47,890 bases of DNA. Origin: a virus. Lineage: Duplodnaviria; Heunggongvirae; Uroviricota; Caudoviricetes. The position numbers and the translations under genes were made by a program. Of the stretch, positions 6,523 through 36,143 are shown in pieces. The stretch lies in the IMG/VR virus record IMGVR_UViG_2671180896_000002; one strand, 5' to 3'. The notes below the pieces were generated by a model. That model did not search any database, was not told the origin of the DNA, and worked only from the letters and a program-made list of their open reading frames with translations. Numbering within the stretch: position 1 is the stretch's first letter; every line of letters begins with the position of its first letter.

Positions 6523-7163
6523 TTGTCGGTGTACCTCTCTCGTTTGCTCAGTTGTTCAGGAATATGGTGCAGCAGCTCGCTGTCACCACAGTAAATGGCG
6601 GCATGATTCGGCACCGATGAACCAAAACAGCACAGCAGCACATCGCCCGGCTGCGCCGCTGACAACGGCACCTGATACAGCCCTGTGGCCTCCAGATTAT
6701 CCAGATAGAGATTCTGACCGTGACGCCACCAGTTATCCCCGCGATGAAAATCCGGCATCTCAATTCCCGCCAGATGGTAAGCGTCCCGGAACAGCGTGTA
6801 ACAGTCCGTCACCCCGTGCTCAAAGCGCCGCCCGGTGAGATGCGGCACACAGCGGAATTTATGAATCGCCCCCCGGCAGACCAGCCACCACGGCAAATCA
6901 CTCTGTACCTGCAGCCGCCGGTCGGCCTCACTCAGCCAGGGCAGACCACCGGGGTGGCTGTGGACCAGCGCCACAATCTCTCCCTGCATTTCTGCACTCA
7001 GCCAGTCCTCCGGCGACATCCGGAAATACGCCTCCGGCTCACCGGAGATATTCACGCAGGGAAAATATCTTTCCTCCTCCGGCGTTCTCACCACGAAGCC
7101 GCACGACTCCGCTGGCGCACATCGCCGGGCGTGCGCCAGAATCGCTGATTCTGTCTCTGTCAT
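6420..7163 (-). CDS. K: Tail assembly protein K (JAMM/MPN plus NlpC/P60-like domains)
   Basis: 247-aa ORF MTETESAILAHARRCAPAESCGFVV... with HSHP metal-binding motif; lambda gpK-like, between L and I. Confidence 0.85.
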   Translation of the reverse strand: MTETESAILAHARRCAPAESCGFVVRTPEEERYFPCVNISGEPEAYFRMSPEDWLSAEMQGEIVALVHSHPGGLPWLSEADRRLQVQSDLPWWLVCRGAIHKFRCVPHLTGRRFEHGVTDCYTLFRDAYHLAGIEMPDFHRGDNWWRHGQNLYLDNLEATGLYQVPLSAAQPGDVLLCCFGSSVPNHAAIYCGDSELLHHIPEQLSKRERYTDKWQRRTHSLWRHRAWHASAFTGIYNDLAAASTFE

Positions 7164-7168
7164 GGGAT

Positions 7169-7867
7169 TTACTGCGAAAGTTTGTTAATGGAAAGGAAGC
7201 TGCCAAAGTTGCCGACATTATTGCGAAACTTACAGCCACTCAGGCATTTGCTGCATTTATCCTTCGTGATATCGGACGTCGGCTGGTCATATTCATCCGC
7301 GACCGCCGGACCGCTATAACCGCACTCATCGCCGCGATAGGTCCAGGTGCAGGTGTTGGCCAGCATGATACGTCCCGGAAAAACAGCGCCATCCGTTTCA
7401 GTCGGCGTGGACAGTACAAAAGAGGCACTGACCGCGCTCAGTTCGCTGCACTGCTCGATGCGCCAGCGGCTGATCACCTCCTGCTCCGGATCGGCTTCGC
7501 TGTTTCCGTTGACGAAGTTCACCGCATCCAGAAAGCGGGCGTAAACCTTACGCCGGACCACCGTTCCGCCGACCAGACTCTGCAGATCTTCCGCCATCCC
7601 GGTGATCATGCCGTGCAGGTTAGAGACCGTCAGTGTCGGACGGGCAGCACTGCCCTTGCCGTTCATCTCAAATCCACTCCCCTGAATGGGATAGGCCTGA
7701 TACTGCCGACTCTGCCAGGTGACAGACTCACCTTTTTCGTTCTGCTCATTACAGAAAAAGTAGCGATCCCCACCTACCTCGGTCAGGTCGATTTCCCAGA
7801 GCACCACGCTGGCCGACTGCTCCGCACGAATGCATTCATTCAGCGTTTCCTGTTGTATGTCCTGCAT
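7169..7867 (-). CDS. L: Minor tail protein L
   Basis: 232-aa [34 protein letters not shown]... with C-terminal Cys cluster (CTWTYRGDECGY...KCSKCLSGC); lambda gpL-like. Confidence 0.9.
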   Translation of the reverse strand: MQDIQQETLNECIRAEQSASVVLWEIDLTEVGGDRYFFCNEQNEKGESVTWQSRQYQAYPIQGSGFEMNGKGSAARPTLTVSNLHGMITGMAEDLQSLVGGTVVRRKVYARFLDAVNFVNGNSEADPEQEVISRWRIEQCSELSAVSASFVLSTPTETDGAVFPGRIMLANTCTWTYRGDECGYSGPAVADEYDQPTSDITKDKCSKCLSGCKFRNNVGNFGSFLSINKLSQ

Positions 7868-8205
7868 CAGATCACCACTTCGTCAAACTGACACGAAAAA
7901 TCGGTATAGGTGATATGTTCTGTCGCTGACCACGTTCGACACACCACTCTGATTTTTCTGTTAATACCCGGCGGGCGCCAAAAAAAAGATTTATAGCCTT
8001 CATGCCGGGCTAAAAATTTTTCAAATGAATCACGTTCATTCGCCTCAACTTTGAAATCACAGGTGAAAACGCGCAGAGAATGATTAAGTCCATTTGGACT
8101 TCGTTGCTCATAACCATCGCCAAATCTTACAGTTTTTATCGATGGTTTATTTTCTGTTTTCATTCCATCCTCTGGTAACCAGTGAAATTCTTCCGTATTA
8201 GCCAC
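7867..8205 (-). CDS. Minor tail protein M-like (divergent from lambda M)
   Basis: 112-aa ORF between H and L containing the [10 protein letters not shown] motif shared with lambda gpM (VRFGDGYSQR); locally AT-rich DNA, start/stop overlaps with H and L. Confidence 0.7.
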
Positions 8206-11915: not shown

Positions 11916-12364
11916 ATCGTATCCTGCTTCTGCTGCTCTTTACCCTGGGCGATGCTGGCTGCTTCTGCAAGGATCTGCCAGTACAACTCTGGATTCTGCT
12001 TAAGCAGCGCGATCCCTCGTTCTGGCGTATATTCCAGTGCAACCTCAGCACCATTAACCAGTTCACCAACCCCTTTCCAGTCTTTCAGCAGATAACGAGC
12101 AGCATTATCAATGAGTAAATCATCAACAGAATCTACCTCGGAAACCTTTGAAATATCAAACTCCTTCGTTCCGACGTGCAAACTGGCATCCATTTTCTCA
12201 ATGTGACGACGGATTAATGCATTACGGGAGCGATACTGATCGTTATCGCTGCTTGCCACCAACAGTTTTAACCCGTCTACAGGTTTTAAGTCCTTCATTG
12301 GCGTAAACCAGCGTTCTCCACCGATGATAATTTTCTGATTAAGAATAAACATCCATAACCTCAT
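11903..12364 (-). CDS. Tail assembly chaperone G
   Basis: 153-aa ORF directly downstream of the major tail gene; AGGGGGA SD 9 nt upstream of ATG at 12364; ends at TAG 11903-11905 immediately after the slippery heptamer. Confidence 0.8.
   Translation of the reverse strand: MRLWMFILNQKIIIGGERWFTPMKDLKPVDGLKLLVASSDNDQYRSRNALIRRHIEKMDASLHVGTKEFDISKVSEVDSVDDLLIDNAARYLLKDWKGVGELVNGAEVALEYTPERGIALLKQNPELYWQILAEAASIAQGKEQQKQDTIKKP
11909..11915 (-). other. Programmed -1 ribosomal frameshift site (slippery heptamer A AAA AAG)
   Basis: Minus-strand codons ATA AAA AAG CCA TAG at the end of G; the -1 frame is open from here to 11595 with no stop codon, and the downstream ORF frame (coordinate mod 3) matches a -1 shift. 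Confidence 0.75.
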
Positions 12365-12412
12365 TCAATGCGTCCCCCTGTAGTGCAGTACCACAGGGGG
12401 AATAACGGAAAA

Positions 12413-13375
12413 TCAACTAATCGCATCAGCACTGGCTTTTGCGATCACGGCAGTCGGGGAGCATTTTTTTCTGGTTATCGTAGGTGCTTCATCTGCTGCG
12501 GTAATGCTCAATTGAACCTGGATAATGTCAGTATTACCCCCATCAGGCCATTCACCTGACACCTGAACCTTCGGGAAACTGAAAGTGTATGCCCCCTCTC
12601 CATTCGAAAGCGTGAAGCTGAACGGAACTGTTTCTCCAGTCAGTGTTTTACTCCAGATTTCCCACGCGGCTTTAGACCATGAAAGCGTCACCGTACCGGA
12701 CGGTGTAAAAGTAGTCGGAATATTTGCTCCTGCATAAGGCGAGCCAGTCCCGATACAACGCTGTGTCTGGAGTTTGTTATCGAACTGAATATCAAAACTG
12801 TCGATACAAAAACCGTTACCTCCGGCAACACCATTCAGGCTTACTGCTGAAACCGCCTTAAACGAATAGCGTAACTTTCCTGCACTATCCACAGGTTCGC
12901 CTTTGATAAAATTCGTATCATCGGCCTTTGATTCCCAGCCCAGCCCGGCAAAGGTTACGGTCGCTGTAATATCGCCGTCGTTAGGGATCTGCATTTTCCA
13001 TGAGCCAACCTGCGCTCCTCTGACGACAGAGGCAATTCCGACATCGGACGCATAGGTCGCCAGAGAAAATGTTATTCGCTCATTCCCCATTGTCAGAGAA
13101 TCGCCTGACCATTCCGCGCCGAAACAGGATGCAAGAAAATCATCATGTTGACCCCAGCGAAATTTGGTACCAACATCACCGCCGACATCCACAGTGCCAG
13201 GCGTCGCCCCCTGAGCCATCCGGGAGCCACCAATCTCATTATTTTCGCCTTTATTCTGGGTGGGTTTTACTCCCCAGCTTGTGCGTTTTAATAAACTCCA
13301 GTCACCACTTGCTGGCGTAGTGCCTGCAACTGTCTCCCGGATAAATGCCGAGATAACCTTTGCACCTGAACTCAC
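12413..13375 (-). CDS. Major tail protein (V-like)
   Basis: 320-aa ORF with GTG start preceded by AGGAGG SD; position between tail terminator-like gene and G; size and Ser/Thr/Gly-rich composition typical of siphovirus major tail subunit with C-terminal extension. Confidence 0.7.
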   Translation of the reverse strand: MSSGAKVISAFIRETVAGTTPASGDWSLLKRTSWGVKPTQNKGENNEIGGSRMAQGATPGTVDVGGDVGTKFRWGQHDDFLASCFGAEWSGDSLTMGNERITFSLATYASDVGIASVVRGAQVGSWKMQIPNDGDITATVTFAGLGWESKADDTNFIKGEPVDSAGKLRYSFKAVSAVSLNGVAGGNGFCIDSFDIQFDNKLQTQRCIGTGSPYAGANIPTTFTPSGTVTLSWSKAAWEIWSKTLTGETVPFSFTLSNGEGAYTFSFPKVQVSGEWPDGGNTDIIQVQLSITAADEAPTITRKKCSPTAVIAKASADAIS

Positions 13376-13401
13376 AGGAGCCTCCTATGTCATTAATTGC
13401 G

Positions 13402-13794
13402 CTAGAGCGCGTGATATGGAATTTGAAGATTAAGCTGGAACCAGCCATTCTTTTCGCCGACGGCTATTGAGGAAACAGCCTGGTAACTGAGACGATCGTC
13501 ATCCTGAAACTCAAACAGTTCCCGCAATTTATCGGCTGTCTCAGTAATGAGTTTTGAACCAGAACCTGCGGGGACAAATAACTGAATAATGATTATCCCC
13601 GTGCGATAAACAACCGGCCCCGCGCCAATTTCATTAACTCCAGCCTGCCCGGGAATATTACTTAACCGCGCCCAGATTAACTTACCGGAAGGATCGAACG
13701 TTGGCGCGTTCGGATACAATACGTCTTTTCCATCAATAATCGTCTGTGCCGTCATTCTGGAAATAACCGTATTTCTGATTTCAGTAAACGTCAT
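13402..13794 (-). CDS. Tail terminator / tail completion protein (U-like, by position)
   Basis: 130-aa ORF immediately upstream of the major tail gene; assignment by gene order only. Confidence 0.5.
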   Translation of the reverse strand: MTFTEIRNTVISRMTAQTIIDGKDVLYPNAPTFDPSGKLIWARLSNIPGQAGVNEIGAGPVVYRTGIIIIQLFVPAGSGSKLITETADKLRELFEFQDDDRLSYQAVSSIAVGEKNGWFQLNLQIPYHAL

Positions 13795-14171
13795 TTGTAA
13801 GCCTGTAAAACACCATGAAAAGCGTTGGCATACACGCCAGTTGGCGCTTGTTGTGAATGACCGTTTTCAAGAGCCTCTGCATAAGGAAGGTTATTCTGGA
13901 TATAAATAACTCCGTAATTTGCAGCTTTCGAAATAACCCCGATCCCACGCTGAACCGCAATCGTACCGTTCGGATCCACGTTATCAGATATACCAAAATC
14001 GGGATGCTGTAACGACACCAGGTTGTTATTTCTGAAACGTCCGGTATCAACCGGAGCAGCAATATCAATAGCAGTAAGAATCTGCATAGCGATGTAGCGA
14101 ATTTTCAGCCCCACATCTTCCTCAATCATCCCGGCAAATATTGACGGTTCTATATCCCATGCCTTTGCCAT
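13791..14171 (-). CDS. Head-tail joining / tail completion protein (Z-like, by position)
   Basis: 126-aa ORF in the head-tail connector block, 4-nt overlap with the downstream gene; assignment by synteny. Confidence 0.5.
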   Translation of the reverse strand: MAKAWDIEPSIFAGMIEEDVGLKIRYIAMQILTAIDIAAPVDTGRFRNNNLVSLQHPDFGISDNVDPNGTIAVQRGIGVISKAANYGVIYIQNNLPYAEALENGHSQQAPTGVYANAFHGVLQAYK

Positions 14172-14555
14172 TTACGCTCTCCTTAACTGGATAGAGTAAA
14201 CTGATGCGGAAGGATCTACACTCGCTGTAATTACCTCGTATCGTTGTAACTGCCTTAATACAGGATCATAAATCTCAATAATATGGTCGACAGCGGGTTT
14301 ATCCGTAACCTCGCATACCAGAGCGGTTAATTTAAGGTCACCATGCAAAATATTAATCCCATCAATTCTGCCCAGCTTATAACGTGTCAACACGCCTCGC
14401 CCGGTATAGATTGCGGTGGATTCGCCGCCAGTTTCCGTCACAGGATCCCAGTGCCGGTGCGTAACGTAAGAACCAGAAAAATCACTCACGGCGTCCGCTA
14501 AATCCTCATCAAAAGCAGCGGCAACCTCTGACTGAATCTCTTCACGAAGCCCCAT
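14172..14555 (-). CDS. Head-tail adaptor / head completion protein (by position)
   Basis: 127-aa ORF between the connector-like gene and tail completion genes; start overlaps upstream stop. Confidence 0.5.
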   Translation of the reverse strand: MGLREEIQSEVAAAFDEDLADAVSDFSGSYVTHRHWDPVTETGGESTAIYTGRGVLTRYKLGRIDGINILHGDLKLTALVCEVTDKPAVDHIIEIYDPVLRQLQRYEVITASVDPSASVYSIQLRRA

Positions 14556-14950
14556 TATCCCCCCCTCACAACCCTGACTTGTGAGCGACTAAGTCCGTAC
14601 GGTTTCAGCAGTGCTATCGCAAGCTGTAAATCGGGTTCAAGCAATGCAGTGCTGTTTGCTGGCAACTCAGAAAATGATTTCGATACACTGACCCCGTCAG
14701 CCGACACGGCTTTACTGATAACAACGCCAGAATCATTTTTCTGCTGAAACAACTTACCGAATGAGGCAATTCTGGCTGCATATGCTCCCGCAAGTTTTAC
14801 CTCTTCCGGAATACGGGATGGGTTAATTTTCAGGTTGAAGCCATTAAGCCAGGCATTAGCCATTAAAACAGCTTTATTTTTAGCGTTCTCACTCGTCCAG
14901 GCGTTCCCAAACGCATTATCAACGTCATCACAGGTCACGTAAGTGATCAT
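14555..14950 (-). CDS. Head-tail connector protein (gp6-like, by position)
   Basis: 131-aa ORF MITYVTCDDVDNAFGNAWTSENAKNKAVLMANAWL...; first gene after capsid gene and terminator, typical location of phage head-tail connector. Confidence 0.5.
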   Translation of the reverse strand: MITYVTCDDVDNAFGNAWTSENAKNKAVLMANAWLNGFNLKINPSRIPEEVKLAGAYAARIASFGKLFQQKNDSGVVISKAVSADGVSVSKSFSELPANSTALLEPDLQLAIALLKPYGLSRSQVRVVRGG

Positions 14951-14953
14951 GTG

Positions 14954-15130
14954 TTACTCCTGAGTTTTCCAGCCCATAGCCTTCCAGTTGTCAACTTCAT
15001 CAGGATGAACATTAGCGATAGTTGGTGCGCCGGGAAACATCTGATAATCGGTCACCATAACCACTAACTCAATTTGCGTTTTTTGTGCGGCTTCACGCTG
15101 TGCTCTTTGCTCTTTAGTTAATCCGGCCAT
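14954..15130 (-). CDS. Small hypothetical protein (58 aa) between capsid and connector genes
   Basis: ORF below the 60-aa cutoff of the supplied track: MAGLTKEQRAQREAAQKTQIELVVMVTDYQMFPGAPTIANVHPDEVDNWKAMGWKTQE; ATG at 15130, TAA at 14954-14956; fills the otherwise empty gap. Confidence 0.4.
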   Translation of the reverse strand: MAGLTKEQRAQREAAQKTQIELVVMVTDYQMFPGAPTIANVHPDEVDNWKAMGWKTQE

Positions 15131-15141
15131 ATGCCCCCCAT

Positions 15142-15166
15142 TAAAAATGGGGCCGAAGCCCCGTTT
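15142..15166 (-). terminator. Rho-independent terminator after the major capsid gene
   Basis: Minus strand: ACGGGGC-TTCG-GCCCC followed by ATTTTTAA, 7 nt downstream of the capsid stop. Confidence 0.6.
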
Positions 15167-15172
15167 GAATGT

Positions 15173-16312
15173 TTAACCAAGAATCAGACAACCATGTGCC
15201 GGCTTCACTGATGAAACACCCCATGCCAGTCCAACTTCATAGCGCACCTGGCGATACTGACGATACAGTGCAATCTGGAACGTAATCCCTGAAATCGGGT
15301 CCGTAACATTCATTACATCATCAGCATTATCGCCACCTTCCGGCATTGCCGGAGTACGGGATGCCAGCAGAAACGCGTTGCGATCAAACGCCATATTTGC
15401 AGTAAAGGCCCCAACAACTGTGATGGCAGTATCATCGGCCAGATCCTGACGCAGTCCGGGCGCTGCAAGAGTAATCAGATTGCTGGTCGCTGCTGCTACA
15501 ACATACTGATTCGGATCACCAGCGAACGTAACAATCTGACCTGCAGAAATACTCCCCGAACCAGTATCAATGGAAATAAGAACATCGCCTTCTTTTTTCT
15601 CTCCATTCACGAGATAACCAGTTGCAGCAACCTTTGGCGCTCGTTTCACACCTGCCGAACTATGAATATTGAATCCCTCCAGACGCCCCAACACGCCCTC
15701 ACGCAGTAGCTGTTCAGTGCCGGATTCATTCACTTTAAACAATACAGACTGTTTTCCGCGCAAATTAGCAATGGCAGTGGAGCCAAGCACCATCTGCAGA
15801 TCGGTTGTCGGTGCGCCGTTATCCTCCAGAACCTGACGAGCCAGAGCAGCATCAGAAAGATCATCTTTAACACCAAACGGCGTTGTCCCTGCGGTTCCCA
15901 CGGCGCGGGAAGCACCGAAATACAACGCACCAAGATCAGCCTCAACCTCGTTTGCAAGGGCGCGAAAAGCCTGCTTGAACTGATCAGCCAGAATGGTGTT
16001 GTAAGTCCCTGAAGGGCCAAGAGCCAGTTGTTCTTCACCATTCCATTTAACCGGTGCCATTTTGGATTTAGTAATTTTTACATCAACAGTGCCAATATTT
16101 TGATCACCGGTATTCGGAGCTGACGGCCCCGGTACGATATCTTCGGTTTTCGCCTCAGGCGCAACTGGCGCGGTTACCGTTTGATCTTTTGCTGCGGCGT
16201 CAGCTTTTGCGTTTTTTGCTACCGCAGGGATAAAACCTACCTGCTCACGGGATACAACATCCAGGGCGGTATAAATAGTCGGGATCAACCCGGTCAGGGT
16301 ATTTCCAGCCAT
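15173..16312 (-). CDS. Major capsid protein
   Basis: ORF open to 16405 but probable start MAGNTLTGLIPTIYTALDVV... at 16312 with AAGGAA SD; ~380 aa, downstream of the scaffold gene and followed by a strong terminator. Confidence 0.75.
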   Translation of the reverse strand: MAGNTLTGLIPTIYTALDVVSREQVGFIPAVAKNAKADAAAKDQTVTAPVAPEAKTEDIVPGPSAPNTGDQNIGTVDVKITKSKMAPVKWNGEEQLALGPSGTYNTILADQFKQAFRALANEVEADLGALYFGASRAVGTAGTTPFGVKDDLSDAALARQVLEDNGAPTTDLQMVLGSTAIANLRGKQSVLFKVNESGTEQLLREGVLGRLEGFNIHSSAGVKRAPKVAATGYLVNGEKKEGDVLISIDTGSGSISAGQIVTFAGDPNQYVVAAATSNLITLAAPGLRQDLADDTAITVVGAFTANMAFDRNAFLLASRTPAMPEGGDNADDVMNVTDPISGITFQIALYRQYRQVRYEVGLAWGVSSVKPAHGCLILG

Positions 16313-16410
16313 AATTAAATATTCCTTAAAAATTTGCGTAATTGTGAATAGATGGAGTAATGAGCTATCCAGCCCTGACACCAGCTCCCATCCGGAAGCT
16401 GACAAATGTG

Positions 16411-17175
16411 TTAATCAACGATTGTGATACCGTCTTTCAATGCGTTTTGCTTACCTGCAACATCCAGTGCATCAAAAGCAGAGCGTTTCATCGTTTTCTG
16501 ACCAATATCATGCTGTGTCGGACGGGAGCCGCCGCCATTGTTGCCACTGGCTTTCAGGATGTAGTCTTTCTGAGGGTAATTTTCGACAAGGAACTCCAGC
16601 GCCTCATCAAACTGCGCCAGTTCGCCAGGCTTCGCGCGGGAATAAATTTTGTTGCCGGAAGCGTCATAAGCAACGATCCTCCCTTCTTCCACTTTGAATG
16701 CCTGCCCGAAGCGGGCTTGTAATAAATCTGCCGGGATCGCAATTTTATCGGCAATATATTTTGAACCCGCAAAACTACCGCCAATCATAGAATCGTAAAG
16801 CTGCTTCTCCAGCATCTGAGAGCGTTGCTTTTCTTCATCTAATTGCTGCTGAAAATTTTTCGTAATTTCTGCCTTAACCTGGTCAACCTGTCCCGCATCG
16901 AGCAGCTTTTTCTGGTCGATTTTTGACAGCATTTCCAGTGCCTCGATCGCCTTCTTCGGGTCTTCGATAGCGGCAAACTTAGCCAGTTTTTCCTCTGCAG
17001 CTTCTTTAGCCAGGCGATGATTTTTTGCCTCGCCATTAAGCTCTGTAATTTTTTTTGTCGCCAGCGGTGCATCGAAGCCAATTTCTTTACCATCGTCGTG
17101 CACATAAACTGGCAGGCCAGCAGTATCAATTTCTGCGTATTGTTTTCCGTTAATCTCGACCGTTTTCAGTTTCAT
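16411..17175 (-). CDS. Head scaffolding protein
   Basis: 254 aa from MKLKTVEINGKQYAEID... (ATG 17175); charged, coiled-coil-rich (EEKQRSQMLEKQLYD) sequence between minor head protein and capsid genes. Confidence 0.65.
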   Translation of the reverse strand: MKLKTVEINGKQYAEIDTAGLPVYVHDDGKEIGFDAPLATKKITELNGEAKNHRLAKEAAEEKLAKFAAIEDPKKAIEALEMLSKIDQKKLLDAGQVDQVKAEITKNFQQQLDEEKQRSQMLEKQLYDSMIGGSFAGSKYIADKIAIPADLLQARFGQAFKVEEGRIVAYDASGNKIYSRAKPGELAQFDEALEFLVENYPQKDYILKASGNNGGGSRPTQHDIGQKTMKRSAFDALDVAGKQNALKDGITIVD

Positions 17176-23305: not shown

Positions 23306-24068
23306 GCATGATCTCCACCATGCGCTGCGTCATCCGGACAAATCCATTTTCAATAGCCTGCTGATAATCAATGATCACCAGCGCCGACTCCTCGAAAAAA
23401 CACTGAATTTCAGAGGGGGCGTGAGCGTAATAGTCCGCAATTCTGCTGAAATTAAACACCGTGTGACGTTCTGCCGCACACAGGAGGAATTTCTCAATAT
23501 CAGGCTCAAGGGACGCCGAACGTATCCGGCTGATCAGCTCCTGAGTTTTCGTATCGTCGTACAGTTCACTGATATCCGGTTTACCGCCCGACGGCTCATA
23601 AACAGGCGTATCAATTTTCGTCGTATACGGCTCCTCCTCATTTCCTGTACCGGGCAAAACATCCGTCAACAGTTCATCAATTTCTGTCGGGATGAAGCCT
23701 GTCAGGGAGACATCAAAATCAGCATTGATTAGGTCCGACAGCTCCATCCGCAACAGATCTTCATCCCAGCCAGCATTCATCGGCAGGCGATTATCTGCCA
23801 GGCGGTACGCCTTTTTCTGCTCATCCGTCAGGCCAGACAGAACAATGACCGGAACAGAATCCATTTTGAGCATTTCAGCCGCCATAACACGACCGTGACC
23901 CGCAATAATTTCGCCCTTTTCGTCAATCAGCACCGGATTAGTCCAGCCGAATTGCTTAATACTTTCTACCAGTTGTGCCACCTGCTCAGGGCTGTGCGTC
24001 CTGGCGTTGTGCGCATACGGTGACAATTCTTGTAATGGGCGATAGACTATCTTTAATTTCTCGCTCAT
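23277..24068 (-). CDS. ParB-like nuclease domain protein
   Basis: 263-aa ORF with N-terminal segment LIDEKGEIIAGHGRVMAA resembling the ParB/Srx-fold GxxR box; acidic C-terminus. Confidence 0.6.
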   Translation of the reverse strand: MSEKLKIVYRPLQELSPYAHNARTHSPEQVAQLVESIKQFGWTNPVLIDEKGEIIAGHGRVMAAEMLKMDSVPVIVLSGLTDEQKKAYRLADNRLPMNAGWDEDLLRMELSDLINADFDVSLTGFIPTEIDELLTDVLPGTGNEEEPYTTKIDTPVYEPSGGKPDISELYDDTKTQELISRIRSASLEPDIEKFLLCAAERHTVFNFSRIADYYAHAPSEIQCFFEESALVIIDYQQAIENGFVRMTQRMVEIMHGGEEEEYA

Positions 24069-24205
24069 ACAGCCTTGCTTTATGAATAAAACGCACCCCA
24101 GCAGCCAGTGCTACTGGGGACGGAGGGGTTGCTGGTAAAGTTAGGTATTGGATCAATGAGTGAGTCAACATAATATTAAACTCACAATTATAAATCAGCC
24201 ATATA

Positions 24206-25663
24206 TTAGGAGCGCCAAAAAAAACCTGAAAACAATATAATAACAGGATAAATTTCAAGGCGACCAAGAATCATAGCTATGCACATTAAACATTTTGCAA
24301 TGTCATTAAGCACTCCGAATGACGATGCAGTAGCCCCAAAACCTAATCCCATATTATTAATACATGCAGCCACTGTTGCAAATGATGTAAGAAAATCATA
24401 TCCCATACCATTTAACACCAGTATAAAAAACACCGTGAAGAGAGTATAAAGAAAAAAGAAACTCCATACAGACCTCATTACACGATCTGTAACTATCTTC
24501 CCTCCTACATTTACACTCAACAACGCTCTGGGATGAGAAAGCTGATTTATCTCGTGTTTGCTTTGTTTGAAAAGTATAAGAAATCGAAGTGACTTAATTC
24601 CACCACAAGTTGAACCTATACATCCCCCAAAGAAACTTGACAACAGCAAAAACACTATCGTGTGCGTGGGCCAACTTGCATAATCCTGCGTAGCTAAACC
24701 ATTATCAGTGAGCATGGAGCTGGCAAGAAAAAACGAATGAATAAAACTTCCATGCAAGTCATACATACCTATATGCCAGACCTGGAAAGAGGTAACAATG
24801 ATCACCCCTAAGGCTATTAACAGAAAGAAACGAAGTTCAATATCTCTGATTAAAGGTTTTATCGTTTTCCTGCTAATAACAATATACCAAAGAGTGAAGT
24901 TGAAAGCCGATAGCAGGGAAAAAGAACCAGCCACCAGCTCAACCAAATAGTTATTAAAATATCCGATACTCTCGCTATGAGTTGAGAAACCACCAAGCGA
25001 AACTGTGGAAATCCCGTGACAAATAGCATCAAACAAAGGCATTCCTGCAAGTCTATAACAGACAATACAAGCAATACCTAATAAAGAATAAGTTATCCAC
25101 AGTGTCCGTGACGTATCGGCCAGGCGGGGAGTGAGTTTGTCATCCTTAAATGGCCCCGGCATTTCTGACTGATAAAGCTTTGCACCACCAATACCCAATA
25201 ATGGCAATACAGCAACCGCCAGAACAATAACTCCTAAACCACCTATAAAATTTAACTGTGACCGATAGTACAAATATGCCCGAGGTAATGAACTAACATC
25301 ATCAATTACAGTTGCTCCTGTTGTTGTTATTCCAGAAACCCCTTCAAACAGAGCATCAATGAACGTTAAATTAAGTTCTGAGTCAATCCATAAAGGGAAT
25401 GCACTAATAACAGAAAACAAAATCCAAAACATTACAATTATAATAAACCCATCACGGGTACGTAATTGAATGCCAGATTTCTTAGTTGTATACCACGCTC
25501 CGCCACCAATGCAAAAAAATATAACGAAAGTTATAAAGAAAACGAACAGGCTTTTTTCTTTATAAAACAATGCTACAACCATTGGTGGCAACATTGAAAG
25601 ACTATAGAGCCAAACCAGGAACCCACACATATGAGTAACAACTCTTACATGAGATGTATTCAT
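24206..25663 (-). CDS. trkG: Trk-system potassium uptake protein TrkG (TrkH/KtrB family)
   Basis: 485-aa polytopic membrane protein from MNTSHVRVVTHMCGFLVWLYSL...; recognisable as Rac prophage TrkG; gene is markedly AT-rich. Confidence 0.9.
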   Translation of the reverse strand: MNTSHVRVVTHMCGFLVWLYSLSMLPPMVVALFYKEKSLFVFFITFVIFFCIGGGAWYTTKKSGIQLRTRDGFIIIVMFWILFSVISAFPLWIDSELNLTFIDALFEGVSGITTTGATVIDDVSSLPRAYLYYRSQLNFIGGLGVIVLAVAVLPLLGIGGAKLYQSEMPGPFKDDKLTPRLADTSRTLWITYSLLGIACIVCYRLAGMPLFDAICHGISTVSLGGFSTHSESIGYFNNYLVELVAGSFSLLSAFNFTLWYIVISRKTIKPLIRDIELRFFLLIALGVIIVTSFQVWHIGMYDLHGSFIHSFFLASSMLTDNGLATQDYASWPTHTIVFLLLSSFFGGCIGSTCGGIKSLRFLILFKQSKHEINQLSHPRALLSVNVGGKIVTDRVMRSVWSFFFLYTLFTVFFILVLNGMGYDFLTSFATVAACINNMGLGFGATASSFGVLNDIAKCLMCIAMILGRLEIYPVIILFSGFFWRS

Positions 25664-25800
25664 ATCTAAATATTCTTTCAATTATAACCACCTTGCTGCA
25701 ATATTATGATTATACTGTATAAAATTTAACTCCTCTTAGATCTTACTTCACTGTTCCTTATGAAACAATCATCAAAATGAATCATATTGTAGTTAAGATT

Positions 25801-26265
25801 TTACTTTAAACACTGCTCGGTTATGTATTGCTGAGCACCTTCAAGTTGGGCCTGCATCATTACCAGTCGTTCCCGGAGGGTGAAATAATCCCGTTCAGCG
25901 GTGTCTGCCAGTCGGGGGGAGGCTGCATTATCCACGCCGGAGGCGGTGGTGGCTTCACGCACTGACTGACAGACTGCTTTGATGTGCAACCGACGACGAC
26001 CAGCGGCAACATCATCACGCAGAACATCATTTTCAGCTTTCGCATCAGCTAACTCCTTCGTGTATTTTGCATCGAGCGCAGCAACATCACGCTGACGCAT
26101 CTGCATGTCAGTAATTGCCGCGTTCGCCAGCTTCAGTTCTCTGGCATTTTTGTCGCGCTGTTCTTTGTAGGCGATGGCGTTATCACGGTAATGATTAACA
26201 CCCCATGACAGGCAGACGACGATGCAGATAACCAGAGCGGAGATAATCGCGGTTACTCTGTTCAT
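25801..26265 (-). CDS. Spanin, inner-membrane subunit (Rz)
   Basis: Start [21 protein letters not shown] (N-terminal TM) overlapping the endolysin stop (ATGA); coiled-coil periplasmic domain; last gene of the lysis cassette. Confidence 0.8.
25860..26045 (-). CDS. Spanin, outer-membrane lipoprotein subunit (Rz1), embedded in Rz in another frame
   Basis: 61-aa [27 protein letters not shown]... with lipobox (VVGC) and proline-rich mature part ([15 protein letters not shown]), fully inside Rz. Confidence 0.75.
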
Positions 26266-27771: not shown

Positions 27772-28200
27772 TCAGGGTTTAAAATCCAGCACCCCATTTT
27801 GAAATACTTTATATACTTCCGGCGAAGGGGGGGCAGGTATATCAGCATTCTTTATCGCATTCATCGCTTCACGACATAAATCGAGGTCTCCACTTTCTCT
27901 TTTAACCTCCAGTAGAAGGCCATTCGGGGCCATATGCATTCTCAGTGTACACTCTTTTCCTGAATACTTACTCGCATCCCCGAACTGTTTTTCGATGGCG
28001 CTCTTGATTTGATGGGCATACAGACGGATATCCTCACTAACATCAGAAGTACGTTCAGATGAACTCACATACTGTGTCTCTATTGCTTTATCGGAGTAAT
28101 ATGATGTACGGTCATGATAATTTGTCGATACAGCATCAGTGCACCCGATAATAATCCCACTAATAATCAACGTAAGAATTGATGCGCTACGAAAACCCAT
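27772..28200 (-). CDS. Lipoprotein with TolA C-terminal (domain III)-like region, paralog 2
   Basis: 142-aa ORF; lipobox (IIGC); C-terminal YAHQIKSAIEKQFGDASKYSGKECTLRMHMAPNGLLLEVKRESGDLDLCREAMNAIKNADIPAPPSPEVYKVFQNGVLDFKP closely resembles the C-terminus of E. coli TolA as I recall it (...YAGQIKSAIESKFYDASSYAGKTCTLRIKLAPDGMLLDIKPEGGDPALCQAALAAAKLAKIPKPPSQAVYEVFKNAPLDFKP). Confidence 0.7.
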   Translation of the reverse strand: MGFRSASILTLIISGIIIGCTDAVSTNYHDRTSYYSDKAIETQYVSSSERTSDVSEDIRLYAHQIKSAIEKQFGDASKYSGKECTLRMHMAPNGLLLEVKRESGDLDLCREAMNAIKNADIPAPPSPEVYKVFQNGVLDFKP

Positions 28201-29138
28201 TTTTCCTCACATATGTCATATAGTAAAGGATTATATATACCGTTGTTTTGGACGCTCAAACAGCGAATCAGATCAAATAAAACGCACATTTGTTAACATT
28301 TACACAAAGTCTGCGTGGGATATTCTGAAAGAATATCCATAATGTGGAGAGAATCTATTGAAGTGCATGGTGCCGGGTGCCTCCCGGTGAACAAAATGTT
28401 CGTGATACCTGTCGGCGACAGAAAAGGTTAATGGTATCACCCCACCGCACAGGGGGATTCACCATGCAGGAGTTTTCTTAGCAAACTCACTGCGCGCCCG
28501 GCAACTCCCAACCACATAAAATGCGGAGTTTGTGGTATTTATGCATATAACTCGCAGGAATTATCTTAAAAAACTGATGTCGATCCGGATTAAAAAGAAG
28601 CAGGTCATCATCAGATGACTGGAAAAAAGGAAAACAAAAAATACTCATCATACAGTTTTGATTGCAGGGATGAGCCTGCTATGCACAATATGCAGAATAT
28701 AAGCAAGATAAAAATATGCAGGCATATTATTTCGGGTTTTGTTATTAACACAACCTTTTTAATAATCATTTGGCATACAATAAACCAGCCCAAAAAGAAC
28801 CGCCTAAACAGGCGGTTGGTCAATACAAAGGATGCTTCGTCTTTATTATAGTAATCTGAGGCGTCGGGTGTCTTGTATCAGACAACATATTGTCCCGCTA
28901 AACAGCGAATTACAAACCACCCTGCAATGATCTCTCATCTCATTTTATATGAGTTGACGACATCAGGATAACGCATCATCAGCCCCTGCCAAGAAATATC
29001 AAAACTCCCGCCAGCAATGTGTTATCACAATATTGTAAAAAAAACACAGCACCGAAACTATAACTGGTCTCTGTTATAATTTGGAGCAGAAAGACCAGTT
29101 GCCCAACTAGCAGCATTCTCCCCTGCTTTCCTGACGTA

Positions 29139-29166
29139 AAAAAACCGCATTAAGCGGTTTTTTTAC
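29139..29166 (-). terminator. Strong hairpin with flanking A and T runs, candidate late terminator (tR'-like) downstream of the Q-like gene
   Basis: AAAAAAACCGC-ATTAA-GCGGTTTTTTTA; on the minus strand the stem is followed by a 7-T run; about 80 nt downstream of the 180-aa gene stop. Confidence 0.55.
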
Positions 29167-29244
29167 GATGTCCATGTCTGCAATCCGCCTCGCGATACAG
29201 CTTTGCGAAGCATAGCAAAATTGAAGCAGTTTATACGTAAGAAA

Positions 29245-29787
29245 TCAAGCCATTTTCTCAGCAAATGATTCACGCATGGGAATATATAGGGCATACTCAG
29301 CAACAGCTAACCAATTAGCAATCCGTTTTTCGCATGTGCTAAAACACCACTCTGGGTGTGCATCATTTAGCAATTCAGCCATTTTGCGCTTAGTCATCCC
29401 CCGCCCTTCATAGCGTTGCCGGAGAATGCAAATCAATCCTGGATGCTCTGCCAGCACCTCACTTATGACTCGATCAATACATAACGCCTCTGCATCAGTA
29501 CAATGCGCCAGCCAGCTCTTTTGCTTGCCGTTGATCATCTCTCGCAAAAACGCTTCCAGCTCAGCTTTCTCTATTCCCGCTTTTTTCATTCTGCGCAGGG
29601 CTTCATTAATGGCTGTTTTCGTCAGTTTTTTGGATGCCAACAACTGATTGAACATATTCCCTGACCTGCCACCGCCAATATACGACCAGCGCCCCCACAT
29701 ACGTAGTTTTCCCTGAATCCAGACACTTTCCAGCGTGGTGAGGCGAAGGTGTTCTCCGCTTTTTCCTGTATTCGTTGGGTAAATCAT
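29245..29787 (-). CDS. Putative late-gene antiterminator (Q-like) by position; family not identified
   Basis: 180-aa ORF with Cys pairs (HCTDAEALC, EWCFSTCEK); last gene of the nin-like block, followed by terminator hairpin, morons and the lysis cassette, the position lambda Q occupies. Not lambda-Q-like in sequence. Confidence 0.4.
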   Translation of the reverse strand: MIYPTNTGKSGEHLRLTTLESVWIQGKLRMWGRWSYIGGGRSGNMFNQLLASKKLTKTAINEALRRMKKAGIEKAELEAFLREMINGKQKSWLAHCTDAEALCIDRVISEVLAEHPGLICILRQRYEGRGMTKRKMAELLNDAHPEWCFSTCEKRIANWLAVAEYALYIPMRESFAEKMA

Positions 29788-31033: not shown

Positions 31034-31124
31034 AAATATTTACAGATGAAGTAAACCCGCCAATCAGGTTAACTGTGGCTGCGTTGAGGATGCATAATAC
31101 ATCAGAGGTTGCGGGGATTTCTCC

Positions 31125-31147
31125 CATAAGCGCTAACTTAAGGGTTG
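31125..31147. repeat. IS186 left terminal inverted repeat
   Basis: CATAAGCGCTAACTTAAGGGTTG; exact reverse complement of 32441-32463. Confidence 0.9.
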
Positions 31148-31173
31148 TGGTATTACGCCTGATATGATTTAAC

Positions 31174-32292
31174 GTGCCGATGAATTACTCTCACGATAAC
31201 TGGTCAGCAATTCTGGCCCATATTGGTAAGCCCGAAGAACTGGATACTTCGGCACGTAATGCCGGGGCTCTAACCCGCCGCCGCGAAATTCGTGATGCTG
31301 CAACTCTGCTACGTCTGGGGCTGGCTTACGGCCCCGGGGGGATGTCATTACGTGAAGTCACTGCATGGGCTCAGCTCCATGACGTTGCAACATTATCTGA
31401 CGTGGCTCTCCTGAAGCGGCTGCGGAATGCCGCCGACTGGTTTGGCATACTTGCCGCACAAACACTTGCTGTACGCGCCGCAGTTACGGGTTGTACAAGC
31501 GGAAAGAGATTGCGTCTTGTCGATGGAACAGCAATCAGTGCGCCCGGGGGCGGCAGCGCTGAATGGCGACTACATATGGGATATGATCCTCATACCTGTC
31601 AGTTCACTGATTTTGAGCTAACCGACAGCAGAGACGCTGAACGGCTGGACCGATTTGCGCAAACGGCAGACGAGATACGCATTGCTGACCGGGGATTCGG
31701 TTCGCGTCCCGAATGTATCCGCTCACTTGCTTTTGGAGAAGCTGATTATATCGTCCGGGTTCACTGGCGAGGATTGCGCTGGTTAACTGTAGAAGGAATG
31801 CGCTTTGACATGATGGGTTTTCTGCGCGGGCTGGATTGCGGTAAGAACGGTGAAACCACTGTAATGATAGGCAATTCAGGTAATAAAAAAGCCGGAGCGC
31901 CCTTTCCGGCACGTCTCATTGCCGTATCACTTCCTCCCGAAAAAGCATTAATCAGTAAAACCCGACTGCTCAGCGAGAATCGTCGAAAAGGACGAGTAGT
32001 TCAGGCGGAAACGCTGGAAGCAGCGGGCCATGTGCTATTGCTAACATCATTACCGGAAGATGAATATTCAGCAGAGCAAGTGGCTGATTGTTACCGTCTG
32101 CGATGGCAAATTGAACTGGCTTTTAAGCGGCTCAAAAGTTTGCTGCACCTGGATGCTTTGCGTGCAAAGGAACCTGAACTCGCGAAAGCGTGGATATTTG
32201 CTAATCTACTCGCCGCATTTTTAATTGACGACATAATCCAGCCATCGCTGGATTTCCCCCCCAGAAGTGCCGGATCCGAAAAGAAGAACTAA
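31174..32292 (+). CDS. insL: IS186 transposase (IS4 family, DDE)
   Basis: 372-aa ORF (M)PMNYSHDNWSAILAHIGKPEELDTSARNAGALTRRREIRDAATLLRLGLAYGPGG..., recognisable as IS186/IS421 transposase; sits inside the inverted repeats. Confidence 0.9.
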   Translation: MPMNYSHDNWSAILAHIGKPEELDTSARNAGALTRRREIRDAATLLRLGLAYGPGGMSLREVTAWAQLHDVATLSDVALLKRLRNAADWFGILAAQTLAVRAAVTGCTSGKRLRLVDGTAISAPGGGSAEWRLHMGYDPHTCQFTDFELTDSRDAERLDRFAQTADEIRIADRGFGSRPECIRSLAFGEADYIVRVHWRGLRWLTVEGMRFDMMGFLRGLDCGKNGETTVMIGNSGNKKAGAPFPARLIAVSLPPEKALISKTRLLSENRRKGRVVQAETLEAAGHVLLLTSLPEDEYSAEQVADCYRLRWQIELAFKRLKSLLHLDALRAKEPELAKAWIFANLLAAFLIDDIIQPSLDFPPRSAGSEKKN

Positions 32293-32440
32293 CTCGTTGT
32301 GGAGAATAACAAAAATGGTCATCTGGAGCTTACAGGTGGCCATTCGTGGGACAGTATCCCTGACAGCCTACAAAACGCAATTGAAGAACGCGAGGCATCG
32401 TCTTAACGAGGCACCGAGGCGTCGCATTCTTCAGATGGTT

Positions 32441-32463
32441 CAACCCTTAAGTTAGCGCTTATG
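32441..32463. repeat. IS186 right terminal inverted repeat
   Basis: CAACCCTTAAGTTAGCGCTTATG; exact reverse complement of 31125-31147. Confidence 0.9.
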
Positions 32464-32485
32464 GGATTTCTCCCCGCCGGTCCTC

Positions 32486-32641: not shown

Positions 32642-32970
32642 AGCCTGCTTCTCCTTGCCTTTCGGCACGTAAGAGGCTAACCTACATGTGCAAAGCATGA
32701 AATTGGCCTCAGATTAATGTTAAGCGTCTTGCCGGATGCGTAATGTTAACTGGGGCTTTTCTCTATCTGCCTTTGATGTTCATGCCCGAGGCAGATAGCC
32801 TCAAGTATCCGCAGCTATTTGTCTGCTGTTACCACCTACCTGCGCCAATCACTGACTCTACAAAGATCTATCCGCGATAACATTTTGAGTTTAAGAACTT
32901 TTGCGTACGCACCAAAAGATGCATATACTAGACTAGTCATAGTTCTAATCTGCTTGATTATGGAGTCAGG

Positions 32971-34029
32971 ATGAGTTTCCTTTCTGAACAAGACGTACAA
33001 AATTTAGTCATTAATAAAATGATCTTTCACGTTGTAGGTAAGAATCTTGAAGCACCGACACTTCTCAAAGAAATAAAACCAGTTCAGCATGTGGATTTTT
33101 TTCTTGAACGTATCAAATCTTCACTGAAAGGAAATCTTTTCACTTTTCTGGAGAATTCAAATACCGAAAGAATCCTGCGTATCATTAGAGATAAAGCAGA
33201 TGCTGAAGCTAATTGTTTTACAGAACAATCGAAGCTACTGGCCAGTGATTTTCAGTCACACCATTCTAGCGGTAACACGAGTATGGGATGCTTTTTCTTA
33301 TTTGAATTGGTTTCAGATAAGGAAAAATTATATGCAATTATAAAATACGATAATGAAGATGTGGTTCGTTATGTTCTTGACGAAAAGTTATCTGAAGAAC
33401 AAATGCCTACTTTAGAAAGATTTCATGAAACTTTCGTAAAAAAAGCTGAGGCAATGCAAAAAATAGCGTTAATTCAACTTGATCCAAGTGGGAAAGGCGG
33501 GAAAGTTATTGTAAAAGACAGGAGTAAAAGAACCAATATTTCAGGATATTTTAAAGGCTTCTTAAATGTTAAAAGAGTCAACTCTGAAATTGAACTTTGC
33601 AATAAGCTTATTGATGCGCTGAAAATAACCTTCAAAAGGCATAAAGAATTATTACCAGAGTCAATTCAAAAAAGCGGCGTAAATAAAATATATGAAGTTT
33701 TAAGCAGAGCTGATTTCGAATATAATCCTGAAGATGCTTCTCCGTTATTGACCAGCATTTTTGGGCCGTTAGATGAAAAATCACCAATTCTCAACACATT
33801 CAAAACTCAAACAAAAAATGCTGGTATTGAAGGCGAATCCTTTACTGTAAAAGCAGATGGCATTCATAAACCACCAAGACGAAAAATTGAAACTGCAGAA
33901 AGTGTAGTAATTAGTTATAATGAAGATGACCGTCCAGAAATAAGAAACTTAGATGATGGGCGAAAACAAATTATTGTTACTACTGCGAGGATTATTACTG
34001 ATGACATCGATACTTCAAAAAATCGATGA
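32971..34029 (+). CDS. NdpA/YejK (NA37)-like nucleoid-associated-protein-family protein, 352 aa
   Basis: ATG with GGAG SD; motifs NKMIFHVVGKN, MGCFFLFELVSDKEKLYAIIKYD and ISGYFKGFLNVKRV parallel YejK motifs (ALHQLIK, GGFVLFCHYRYLAVEYLL, YLTFLKGRVGRKV) as recalled; AT-rich gene on the strand opposite to flanking phage genes. Confidence 0.55.
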   Translation: MSFLSEQDVQNLVINKMIFHVVGKNLEAPTLLKEIKPVQHVDFFLERIKSSLKGNLFTFLENSNTERILRIIRDKADAEANCFTEQSKLLASDFQSHHSSGNTSMGCFFLFELVSDKEKLYAIIKYDNEDVVRYVLDEKLSEEQMPTLERFHETFVKKAEAMQKIALIQLDPSGKGGKVIVKDRSKRTNISGYFKGFLNVKRVNSEIELCNKLIDALKITFKRHKELLPESIQKSGVNKIYEVLSRADFEYNPEDASPLLTSIFGPLDEKSPILNTFKTQTKNAGIEGESFTVKADGIHKPPRRKIETAESVVISYNEDDRPEIRNLDDGRKQIIVTTARIITDDIDTSKNR

Positions 34030-35434
34030 GTCTATACAGGCGTCAAGGAAAGACCCTGAATTTTTGGCATCAGAATCAATAAAAAATGATTCTGCGCGCG
34101 TTCTAATTTCTGCCAAAATGGACAAAGATGCACTCATTCTTTGGCAGTACGTTTACGAAAACGTACCAAATTGGATTGAAATTACTGTTAAAGATGACTG
34201 TAATGACGAAGTAAAACCATCGTCATGCAGTGAAGGTGATAAACTTAACATTACGCTAAAATGCATTGCATTCGAAAATAACAGGTATATTTTTACGCTC
34301 GAAGGGTGGAATGTTTTTCTACACAATGATGATTTAGTATCAATAACCAATAAAGTGAATATTCTCGGTTTGAAACATGGATTTGAAACTTTAGGATATT
34401 CTGTTGAGCCATGGAACCATGCTCCAGAAAAAATTGAACCTAATGAAACCGTACGAACTTCAATCAATTTACAGAGCTACGTTAAATTCTATTCTAGTGA
34501 GTTCATGCCTGCATCTGATATAGCTCCTTGGGTACTTTATAAAATGCCTGAGGCAGAGGACAACTTTTTCAAAAAATGGTTACAAGTTTCCTGCAATATG
34601 CTTTGTCGCACTCTCGTTAATGAATTATTAGCAGATGAAAAGAAATCAATTTGTTTAACTGGAAAGCCACCAAAAAAATTAATTTATGGAGATCCAGACA
34701 TTCTGCTTTCCGACTATTCAGTTTTACAAACTGTAATAAACTGGATCTTTATTGAGGGCAATGAGATTGAACTCAAACATACTTTCTTCACAAGTGAGTT
34801 AGCACGAGAATGGCCAGAGTATGTATCCTTCTGTGAGGGTTTACCAAAAAAACTCCCTATGGCCTTTGAGTCAGCAAAATTACTATATAAGGCCCACATT
34901 CGCGCTAGCAGCAGAGAGACTATTAAATCTCTGTCCGATCTAAGGAAAACCTTAGCTGAAGACACGCAAAAAATAATAAGTCAGTCTAAAGACATCACAT
35001 CCGCTCTTTGGAAAGATCTGGCTCTGGTTATAAGTCTATTTGCAATAAAATATGCGCTAGACGCATCAAAGATTAATATAACCAATAACATATTCCCATA
35101 TATGTTCTTCGCGTTATCTATATATATTTTTATATCTCAGGTTACAACTCTCTTCATAAATAAAAATTACTTTAAGATACTTGATAATACTAGGCTAGTC
35201 TGGAGAGATAAACTATATGGTTTTCTTGATGATACTGACTATGAGAATCTTGCAGTCACACCATTAAGAGAGGCATACAAAGCTTATCAGATTATAGCCA
35301 CATTCGTTGTGATTCTGACTTTGCTGATTTCATTTATAATGATCATATTAGGATTCTCAATGCTTGATGAACATGCTACGAATGCAATTACCTCTTGGCT
35401 CAGTTCTCACTTAATCAATAGTTACTGTAGTTAA
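34001..35434 (+). CDS. Membrane protein, ~477 aa: N-terminal soluble domain plus three or more C-terminal transmembrane helices
   Basis: Start ATG 34001 (MTSILQKIDESIQ...) overlaps the upstream gene by 29 nt (supplied ORF begins at 33953); C-terminal hydrophobic segments LALVISLFAIKYAL, IFPYMFFALSIYIFISQVTTLFI, IIATFVVILTLLISFIMIILGFSML. Confidence 0.6.
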   Translation: MTSILQKIDESIQASRKDPEFLASESIKNDSARVLISAKMDKDALILWQYVYENVPNWIEITVKDDCNDEVKPSSCSEGDKLNITLKCIAFENNRYIFTLEGWNVFLHNDDLVSITNKVNILGLKHGFETLGYSVEPWNHAPEKIEPNETVRTSINLQSYVKFYSSEFMPASDIAPWVLYKMPEAEDNFFKKWLQVSCNMLCRTLVNELLADEKKSICLTGKPPKKLIYGDPDILLSDYSVLQTVINWIFIEGNEIELKHTFFTSELAREWPEYVSFCEGLPKKLPMAFESAKLLYKAHIRASSRETIKSLSDLRKTLAEDTQKIISQSKDITSALWKDLALVISLFAIKYALDASKINITNNIFPYMFFALSIYIFISQVTTLFINKNYFKILDNTRLVWRDKLYGFLDDTDYENLAVTPLREAYKAYQIIATFVVILTLLISFIMIILGFSMLDEHATNAITSWLSSHLINSYCS

Positions 35435-35464
35435 TTTAAGGCGAGAGAAACTCGCCTTAAAAAA

Positions 35465-35995
35465 TCAACGGTAATAGATACAACCTGCAATAAATCCCAT
35501 TGCCATTTGCATTTTTTTCCTTATTTTACCATCTGAACATTCGTTTATCTTAGCTAAACAACGCAATGAAACTCTCATAACAAAATGAGCGATAATTAAC
35601 TCATAGTCATCTATCCTATATTGTTTAAGCCTCAACATGCAGGTATCAATTATACCCCCTTCATCATTGCTGCACTGACGACGTGATTTTTTACCATGAG
35701 GAACAACATTTTTATATTTATCAGCTATTTCCTGCCAATCAATAGAACTATTTTCAGCTACAGCCCAGGCTCCCCAACCGTCCAAAATATCATATATATT
35801 AGCATTGCTATCTACCTGTTTTTTATATTCTTTTTTGAAGCGCGCAAGAAGCATCCTAGCCATCGTTATTATTTCTATACTTGTAACTGATTCATAAGCA
35901 TCAGGAGAAATAATTCTCCCATCACTTAATGCCCCATCACTAAGATTTGCTATTTCCAATAATCGTTCTTTAGTTATTTCCATTATTATCTCCAC
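35465..35995 (-). CDS. Q-like antitermination protein (QuuD / Phage_antitermQ-like family)
   Basis: Contains DGWGAWAVAEN...KKSRRQCSNDEGGIIDTCMLRLKQ...CLAKINECSDGKIRKKMQMAMGFIAGC matching the WGAWA and Cys-pair pattern of DLP12 QuuD as recalled; start may be an internal Met (MARML..., 35863); AT-rich. Confidence 0.5.
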   Translation of the reverse strand: MEIIMEITKERLLEIANLSDGALSDGRIISPDAYESVTSIEIITMARMLLARFKKEYKKQVDSNANIYDILDGWGAWAVAENSSIDWQEIADKYKNVVPHGKKSRRQCSNDEGGIIDTCMLRLKQYRIDDYELIIAHFVMRVSLRCLAKINECSDGKIRKKMQMAMGFIAGCIYYR

Positions 35996-36143
35996 CGCCT
36001 TTTCGGGCGGCCTCCTGATGATTTGAGAGTGCAGAAATTCCTCCGGTTAAGGACTCTATTTTATTCACAGTGCTGAATTTAATTATTCAGATTTGGATTA
36101 TGCTTTCTCTTTCACTTCACCAAGTTCCGATTATTAATTTGGC

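Follow-up and report, generated by a model that had tools for sequence, protein, structure and literature searches.

The window analysed here, a stretch of 47,890 nucleotides (nt) from the Caudoviricetes virus record IMGVR_UViG_2671180896_000002 of IMG/VR, carries two overlapping genes, here called ORF1 and ORF2 (ORF, open reading frame). Taken together, our analyses make it likely that the pair is an anti-phage module of the PANGU type II kind, self-contained and horizontally mobile, which a Rac-like prophage carries as cargo. ORF1 (32971..34029, plus strand) encodes a 352-amino-acid (aa) nucleoid-associated protein (NAP) of the YejK/NdpA type, a DNA clamp and candidate counterpart of the PANGU sensor PagA. 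ORF2 (34001..35434, plus strand) encodes a 477-aa protein with an acidic cytoplasmic part and a C-terminal membrane hairpin, a candidate counterpart of the PANGU effector PagB. The 3' end of ORF1 lies on the 5' end of ORF2 over 29 nt (34001..34029, plus strand), an arrangement of translational coupling. Each gene has its own plus-strand Shine-Dalgarno motif in the sequence, GGAG for ORF1 (32962..32965, 5 nt before the ATG) and GAGGA for ORF2 (33987..33991, 9 nt before the ATG and within ORF1). A first-pass annotation made from the letters alone had described two plus-strand genes with this overlap and individual ribosome-binding sites, and the coordinates and both motifs were confirmed. The ORF list places the start of ORF2 at 33953; RefSeq annotates the ATG at 34001, and homologues back the latter. 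The protein accessions of the pair are WP_042097780.1 and WP_046788432.1.

The pair differs from its surroundings in both composition and orientation. A scan of the window gave a GC (guanine plus cytosine) fraction of 0.34-0.36 across 33001-36000 against 0.45-0.54 in the flanks. Since stop codons are AT-rich and this DNA is low in GC, open frames of 352 and 477 codons are not chance. The neighbouring phage genes (a Q-family antiterminator, DUF977, DUF1627, a ydaV-like gene, hok, DUF1367, and YbcO) lie on the minus strand. The AT-rich island on the opposite strand that the first-pass annotation described is therefore real and holds the pair, with the correction that a convergent allele of the Q antiterminator also lies within it.

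ORF1 belongs to the NA37 family, as had been proposed from its motifs. It matched PF04245 at 49.6 bits (cut-off 24.6), with residues 18-335 aligned to positions 1-316 of the 325-position model, and the domain was present in all listed full-length homologues. The two-domain YejK fold is present in ORF1. Chromosomal YejK (NdpA, PDB 9be2), at ~14% identity, stands alone as a housekeeping gene passed on vertically; ORF1, in contrast, has ORF2 as its constant partner and spreads horizontally. An hhalign comparison of the ORF1 family with YejK aligned only the first ~80 residues, without significance, too weak an alignment to carry over the basic pore residues that bind DNA in YejK (R173/R176/K177 and R276/R280/K284). 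Within the ORF1 family itself, the basic residues R47, R70, K125, K158, K164, R184, and R202 are invariant. Scans of PADLOC, NCBIfam, and PHROGs with ORF1 returned nothing informative, the single match being the unannotated phrog_1974, and a profile search of the PDB with the ORF1 family gave no match.

ORF2 matched no model in Pfam, PADLOC, NCBIfam, or PHROGs, and a sequence profile search of the PDB with its family found no relative. The family is nevertheless large, comprising 676 clusters at 50% identity in an exhaustive profile search. The AlphaFold2 (AF2) model of ORF2 is confident, with a predicted local distance difference test score (pLDDT) of 89.3. It consists of an α/β domain (aa 1-230), a helical bundle (aa 232-355), and two very long helices (aa 364-404 and 411-454) followed by a short terminal helix. 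The first long helix (35090..35212, plus strand) contains a transmembrane (TM) core at ~368-386, and the second (35231..35362, plus strand) contains the strongest one, at ~431-449, with a mean Kyte-Doolittle hydropathy of 3.07; both cores were placed from family hydropathy and the AF2 model. Two hydrophobic segments, aa ~364-386 and ~431-449, are conserved family-wide, and a weaker amphipathic stretch (~335-358) precedes them and perhaps spans the membrane as a third TM helix. The earlier count of "three or more" TM helices has accordingly been lowered to two conserved helices, perhaps three. The soluble part of ORF2 has an isoelectric point of 5.2 and a net charge of -10; in its relatives this part was net negative in 67 of 67 loci, with a median of -9. 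The juxtamembrane helical region (aa ~248-340) is highly conserved, with E257, H260, E266, R269, W271, H299, R315, Q328, W337, and D339 invariant.

This two-gene architecture has a published counterpart. In PANGU defences, a YejK-like NAP (PagA) is bound to the nucleoid and is freed when phage nucleases degrade the host DNA; freed PagA then binds an acidic DNA-mimicking (DMK) domain of its partner effector, PagB, and so switches the effector on (Li et al., April 2026, bioRxiv 10.64898/2026.04.06.716658). Type II systems combine the NAP Pag2A with Pag2B, in which an acidic N-terminal DMK domain precedes a C-terminal TM region. The Escherichia coli operon PANGU^Ecu gave 3-4 logs of protection against T4 and did not block T1 or T5. 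It required both genes and behaved as an abortive-infection system, and T4 denA (EndoII) mutants escaped it. Pag2A bound the DMK domain of Pag2B with a dissociation constant of 19 nM and departed the nucleoid upon infection. No toxicity was seen with either gene by itself or with both together, the NAP acting as an activator (all bioRxiv 10.64898/2026.04.06.716658). Compared by description, ORF1/ORF2 matches type II PANGU in architecture, feature for feature. Both are bicistronic with the NAP gene first and a partner whose TM region is C-terminal; the acidic cytoplasmic part at the N-terminal end of ORF2 is a candidate counterpart of the DMK domain. Further points in common are an origin in E. 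coli, a spread across phyla, and defence genes nearby. The preprint makes no mention of prophage carriage; the ORF1/ORF2 pair travels as cargo both in a Rac-like prophage and in an isolated temperate phage.

The pair is therefore probably a member or close analogue of a described kind and not a new class. The first-pass annotation had called the locus a candidate undescribed anti-phage defence or abortive-infection system. Conservation, mobility, the cargo slot, and published analogues all fit the defence part of that proposal, but "undescribed" no longer applies, as PANGU type II (Pag2A/Pag2B) was named in 2026. We consider membership of ORF2 in the Pag2B family somewhat better than an even bet. 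That ORF2 represents a distinct effector family, a new fold independently coupled to a YejK-like clamp, is the less probable of the two outcomes, though by no means a negligible one.

A second validated E. coli pair of a NAP and a TM protein, DS-1 (D390; WP_000355468.1 and WP_000150292.1), was found with DefensePredictor, with recorded effects on Bas1, Bas26, Bas3, T3, T7, and T5 and no listing of T4 (Science 2026, PMC13092281). Like ORF1/ORF2, DS-1 consists of a YejK/NA37-domain protein followed by a partner, here of 404 aa, whose soluble N-terminal part is acidic and whose hydrophobic segments are C-terminal. The DS-1 NAP, however, has 391 aa and an additional N-terminal zinc ribbon that ORF1 does not have, and the DS-1 genes abut without overlap (221777/221780), whereas ORF1 and ORF2 overlap by 29 nt. 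Homology with DS-1 was rejected, as hhalign gave probabilities of 0.2-0.6% for the single sequences and for the partners compared profile to profile. DS-1 is probably not PANGU^Ecu either, because the spectra differ: DS-1 acts on T5 and has no T4 entry, while PANGU^Ecu acts on T4 and not on T1 or T5. The chance that the ORF2 family is the published one is therefore modestly raised.

The conservation of ORF1 and ORF2 as a unit was assessed in 70 loci, namely that of E. coli S42 and 69 others retrieved from genomes by way of ORF2 relatives. In every one of the 70, an ORF1 homologue lay immediately 5' of ORF2 and in the same orientation, even where identity fell to 22-28%, which answers in the affirmative the earlier suggestion to check whether the pair co-occurs elsewhere. 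These loci come from Proteobacteria, with one Acidobacteria record and one Bacteroidetes record, including a Terriglobus genome and a Bacteroidetes metagenome-assembled genome. Homologues of both proteins occur in Enterobacterales, Methylomonas, Methylobacterium, Sphingomonas, and others. No third conserved gene was found at the pair loci. The overlap is present in 69 of the 70 loci, ranging from 8 to 53 nt and invariably 2 mod 3, so that the ORF2 start sits in a constant relative frame within the conserved acidic C-terminal tail of ORF1. The GC content of the pair was below that of its own flanks in 54 of the 70 loci. ORF1 is the more conserved partner, with a mean column identity of 61% against 43% for ORF2. 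As a separate observation, ORF1 and ORF2, although unrelated in sequence, share one 90%-identity cluster (386 members; its representative is a partial ORF2). This may stem from a fused or mis-called sequence that bridges the two, and the member counts of this cluster would then mix both proteins.

Overlapping, co-transcribed genes of which one encodes a membrane protein are also what a toxin-antitoxin (TA) or addiction module could look like, with ORF2 as a membrane toxin restrained by ORF1 and post-segregational killing stabilising the element. The company of the pair, hok here and a VapBC-like pair in Methylomonas, would fit as well. We nevertheless regard this explanation as very improbable. 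At 352 and 477 aa the proteins are large and unlike typical TA pairs, ORF1 is better conserved than ORF2, and in PANGU the two genes are harmless both singly and together, the NAP being an activator and no antitoxin.

Flanking gene content identifies the host element as a Rac-like lambdoid E. coli prophage. On one side of the pair lie racR, ydaS/T/U/V, DUF1627, DUF977, and the Q-family antiterminator; on the other side lie hok, DUF1367, YbcO/DUF1364, DUF1133, and the lysis genes. E. coli S42 was 100% identical over 32700-35500. In other strains, the slot between DUF977 and hok/DUF1367 of the Rac-like prophage held QueH with DUF1971, KilA-N with a TehB-like gene, or QueH with hokD, and the pair was missing from most otherwise near-identical Rac-like prophages. 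From these sequence comparisons, the pair is seen to fill a variable cargo slot of the Rac-like prophage. Homology to other Rac-like prophages ends where the Q antiterminator gene (35465..35995, minus strand; Pfam Phage_antitermQ, E 1e-32; GC 0.34), which is convergent with ORF2, begins. This AT-rich Q allele was found in 37 complete genomes, compared with 29 for the pair, and co-occurs with it. The Q antiterminator shares the low-GC segment but stands outside the conserved two-gene module.

Among complete E. coli genomes, 29 of 5426 carried the pair, every one in this prophage context. The exact ORF2 protein was found in 638 contigs of a large collection. A housekeeping NAP was rejected as an explanation, the pair being sporadic (those 29 genomes), low in GC, and located on mobile elements. 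Beyond the prophage, Citrobacter and E. coli carry a 41-42% identical ORF2 relative directly after a tyrosine integrase at an island edge, and this integrase island occupies two different chromosomal sites. In Methylomonas, the pair and the VapBC-like TA pair form an islet between housekeeping operons. Ten plasmids carry ORF2 relatives, of which 5 are conjugative. The isolated marine temperate Thiobacimonas phage vB_ThpS-P1 (KT381864.1; locus 545-3011) has an intact pair at its genome end, adjoining a Cro/CI repressor. Translated from the ATG at 545, the upstream ORF of this pair encodes 350 aa and matches the ORF1 family along its whole length (hhalign 99.8%, E 7e-28); the Pfam NA37 model did not detect this divergent member.

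Two side observations concern these copies. The vB_ThpS-P1 protein gp52 is annotated as 281 aa instead of the 350 aa read from the ATG at 545, and the annotated start is probably wrong. The Klebsiella variicola IncHI2 plasmid NZ_CP044051.1 (locus 6001-7194) carries an ORF2 relative that lacks its N-terminal part and has no NAP gene beside it, directly after a copy of IS26 in a resistance region, apparently a remnant of a pair cut by IS26.

This distribution bears on whether the pair serves defence at all. A clamp with a membrane anchor could instead tether or regulate the element's own DNA, for example as a RexA-like bias of the lysis-lysogeny decision, in membrane-associated replication or partition, or by modulating the host nucleoid or topoisomerases. 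Topoisomerases are modulated by YejK, a general nucleoid protein, RexA acts in the lambda switch independently of defence, in both phages the pair has regulatory and replication genes close by, and many pair loci have no recognisable defence neighbour. However, the carrier elements are of very different types (prophage, integrase island, plasmid, and small islet) and share no common replication or partition genes. The pair is also dispensable for Rac-like prophages, being missing from most near-identical ones, and the same architecture has a published anti-phage phenotype. We therefore judge a non-defence role to be unlikely.

Within defence, the closest functional comparisons outside the NAP-effector pairs are Kiwa and lambda RexAB. 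In Kiwa, sensing falls to the membrane protein KwaA, which is small, has 4 TM helices, and is encoded by the first gene; the DNA-binding effector is KwaB, which carries DUF4868. Profiles of KwaA and KwaB gave no match to the pair, and the fold match of KwaB was weak. Lambda RexAB is likewise a prophage pair expressed in the lysogen, composed of a non-specific DNA-binding dimer and a membrane protein. Its DNA-binding dimer has an RdgC/CENP-L/N-like fold, and it aborts infection by T4-type phages. The Thiobacimonas phage copy of our pair also adjoins a repressor, as in RexAB. Profiles of RexA-like and RexB-like proteins did not match the pair, which places it outside these families, and Kiwa and RexAB are functional analogues only. 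They do suggest a defence with the roles reversed, in which ORF2 would sense an envelope event such as DNA injection or membrane stress and release or activate ORF1; ORF1 would then clamp the incoming phage DNA and block its replication or late transcription, and the cell would not be killed. Such reversed, Kiwa-like logic is the main rival within defence, though we hold it to be improbable; the non-defence and addiction readings are less likely.

If the pair does act as a PANGU type II-like module, infection could be sensed and answered in the following way. By analogy with YejK, Pag1A, and Pag2A, ORF1 would sit on the host nucleoid of uninfected cells as a dimeric YejK-fold clamp. Once an infecting phage breaks down the host DNA, T4 with its EndoII being an example, the clamp would lose its substrate and be released, as the PANGU preprint describes for PagA. 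Free ORF1 would then bind the acidic cytoplasmic domain of ORF2 instead of DNA, as suggested by the binding of Pag2A to the DMK domain of Pag2B. On binding, ORF2, a predicted two-helix membrane hairpin under a long helical stalk, would change state, probably by oligomerising or opening. Judging purely from its architecture, the switched protein would damage membrane integrity or energetics and thereby abort phage growth. Through their conserved out-of-frame overlap, ORF1 and ORF2 are coupled in translation, which would fix their stoichiometry.

Several points weigh against assigning the pair to a PANGU type II-like defence or limit the weight of the evidence for it. The match to PANGU type II was made to the published description, so the two may be the same family or analogous ones. 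The acidity of the ORF2 N-terminal part is moderate and does not discriminate, as the DS-1 partner is similarly acidic. Profile-profile hhalign between ORF2 and the DS-1 partner gave a probability of 0.55%; in the absence of homology, architecture alone is no proof of common descent with a validated effector. Profile searches, which the first-pass annotation had put forward as a check, placed ORF1 in NA37 and found no match for ORF2, nor did PADLOC-DB 2.0 (2023) match the pair. Pairwise distances within ORF1 and ORF2 were correlated (r=0.955, Mantel p=0.001), which counts in favour of the module, shows co-inheritance, and is compatible with co-evolution; a mirror-tree correlation of such size is expected for any co-inherited operon. 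A promoter and terminator scan around the pair found sites no more often than in shuffled sequence and none at the expected place 5' of ORF1. Finally, the neighbour scan covered the two nearest ORFs per side, with ORF calls that are crude in high-GC loci. Flanking ORFs included 11 integrases and matches to PtuA/PtuB, AbiJ, QatA, ThsB, DrmD, AriA, type I and IIG restriction-modification systems, SoFic, mad, and PDC models. This defence-gene neighbourhood is suggestive of a defence role, the figures being raw counts uncalibrated against random genes.

In Sphingomonas, the pair adjoins an RNase_T / Multi_ubiq / ThiF cluster. Directly 3' of the pair (locus 12000-17096), this cluster comprises RNase_T, three unannotated proteins, a Multi_ubiq-like protein, and a DUF6791-ThiF (E1-like) protein. 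From its domain content, it looks like a ubiquitin-like conjugation defence cluster of the Bil/Bub type.

Other features of the window lie close to the pair. The presence of hok and of an insertion sequence (IS), both recorded in the first-pass annotation, was confirmed, hok by its profile (PF01848). The IS is an IS4-family element of the IS186/IS421 type, inserted between DUF1367 and hok, with a DDE transposase at 31174-32292 (plus strand). It extends over ~31126-32462, with terminal inverted repeats at ~31126-31147 and 32441-32462, and is flanked by a perfect 12-bp target-site duplication, GGGATTTCTCCC (window 31114-32474). The prophage of E. coli S42, identical in all other respects, lacks the IS, which is a feature of this strain only. 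Past hok, ~120 nt (window 32700-32820) are ~94% identical to hok/sok of many Shiga toxin (Stx) and lambdoid phages, and the matching region in 933W is annotated as the SokW antisense RNA. A Sok-type RNA from this position would run towards ORF1, for which the scan found no separate promoter. This hok/sok homology probably explains most of the 4222 E. coli genomes that match in part. Further away, three other segments (8000-9500, 24000-26000, and 28000-29500) have a GC of 0.39-0.43 against a background of 0.46-0.50 and may be additional prophage cargo or moron regions.

The pair provides a concrete native example of a candidate NAP-based abortive-infection module carried as prophage cargo. Its carriage by a prophage and by vB_ThpS-P1 links PANGU-type sensing of host-genome destruction to the exclusion of lytic phages, as known for lambda rexAB. 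The ORF2 family lacks a Pfam model and escapes PADLOC-DB 2.0; defence annotation that uses those libraries therefore misses the family. The 70 loci, the overlap, the juxtamembrane region, the two TM helices at invariant positions, and the structure model are starting points for understanding how a NAP engages its membrane partner and what that partner does. Should ORF2 not be Pag2B, evolution in Enterobacteria would have produced defences built from a NAP and a membrane protein on at least three occasions (Pag2AB, DS-1, and ORF1/ORF2). Together with RexAB and Kiwa, this would point to a general design rule in which a non-specific DNA clamp and a membrane protein form an infection switch, and temperate phages would be one main vehicle of such switches.

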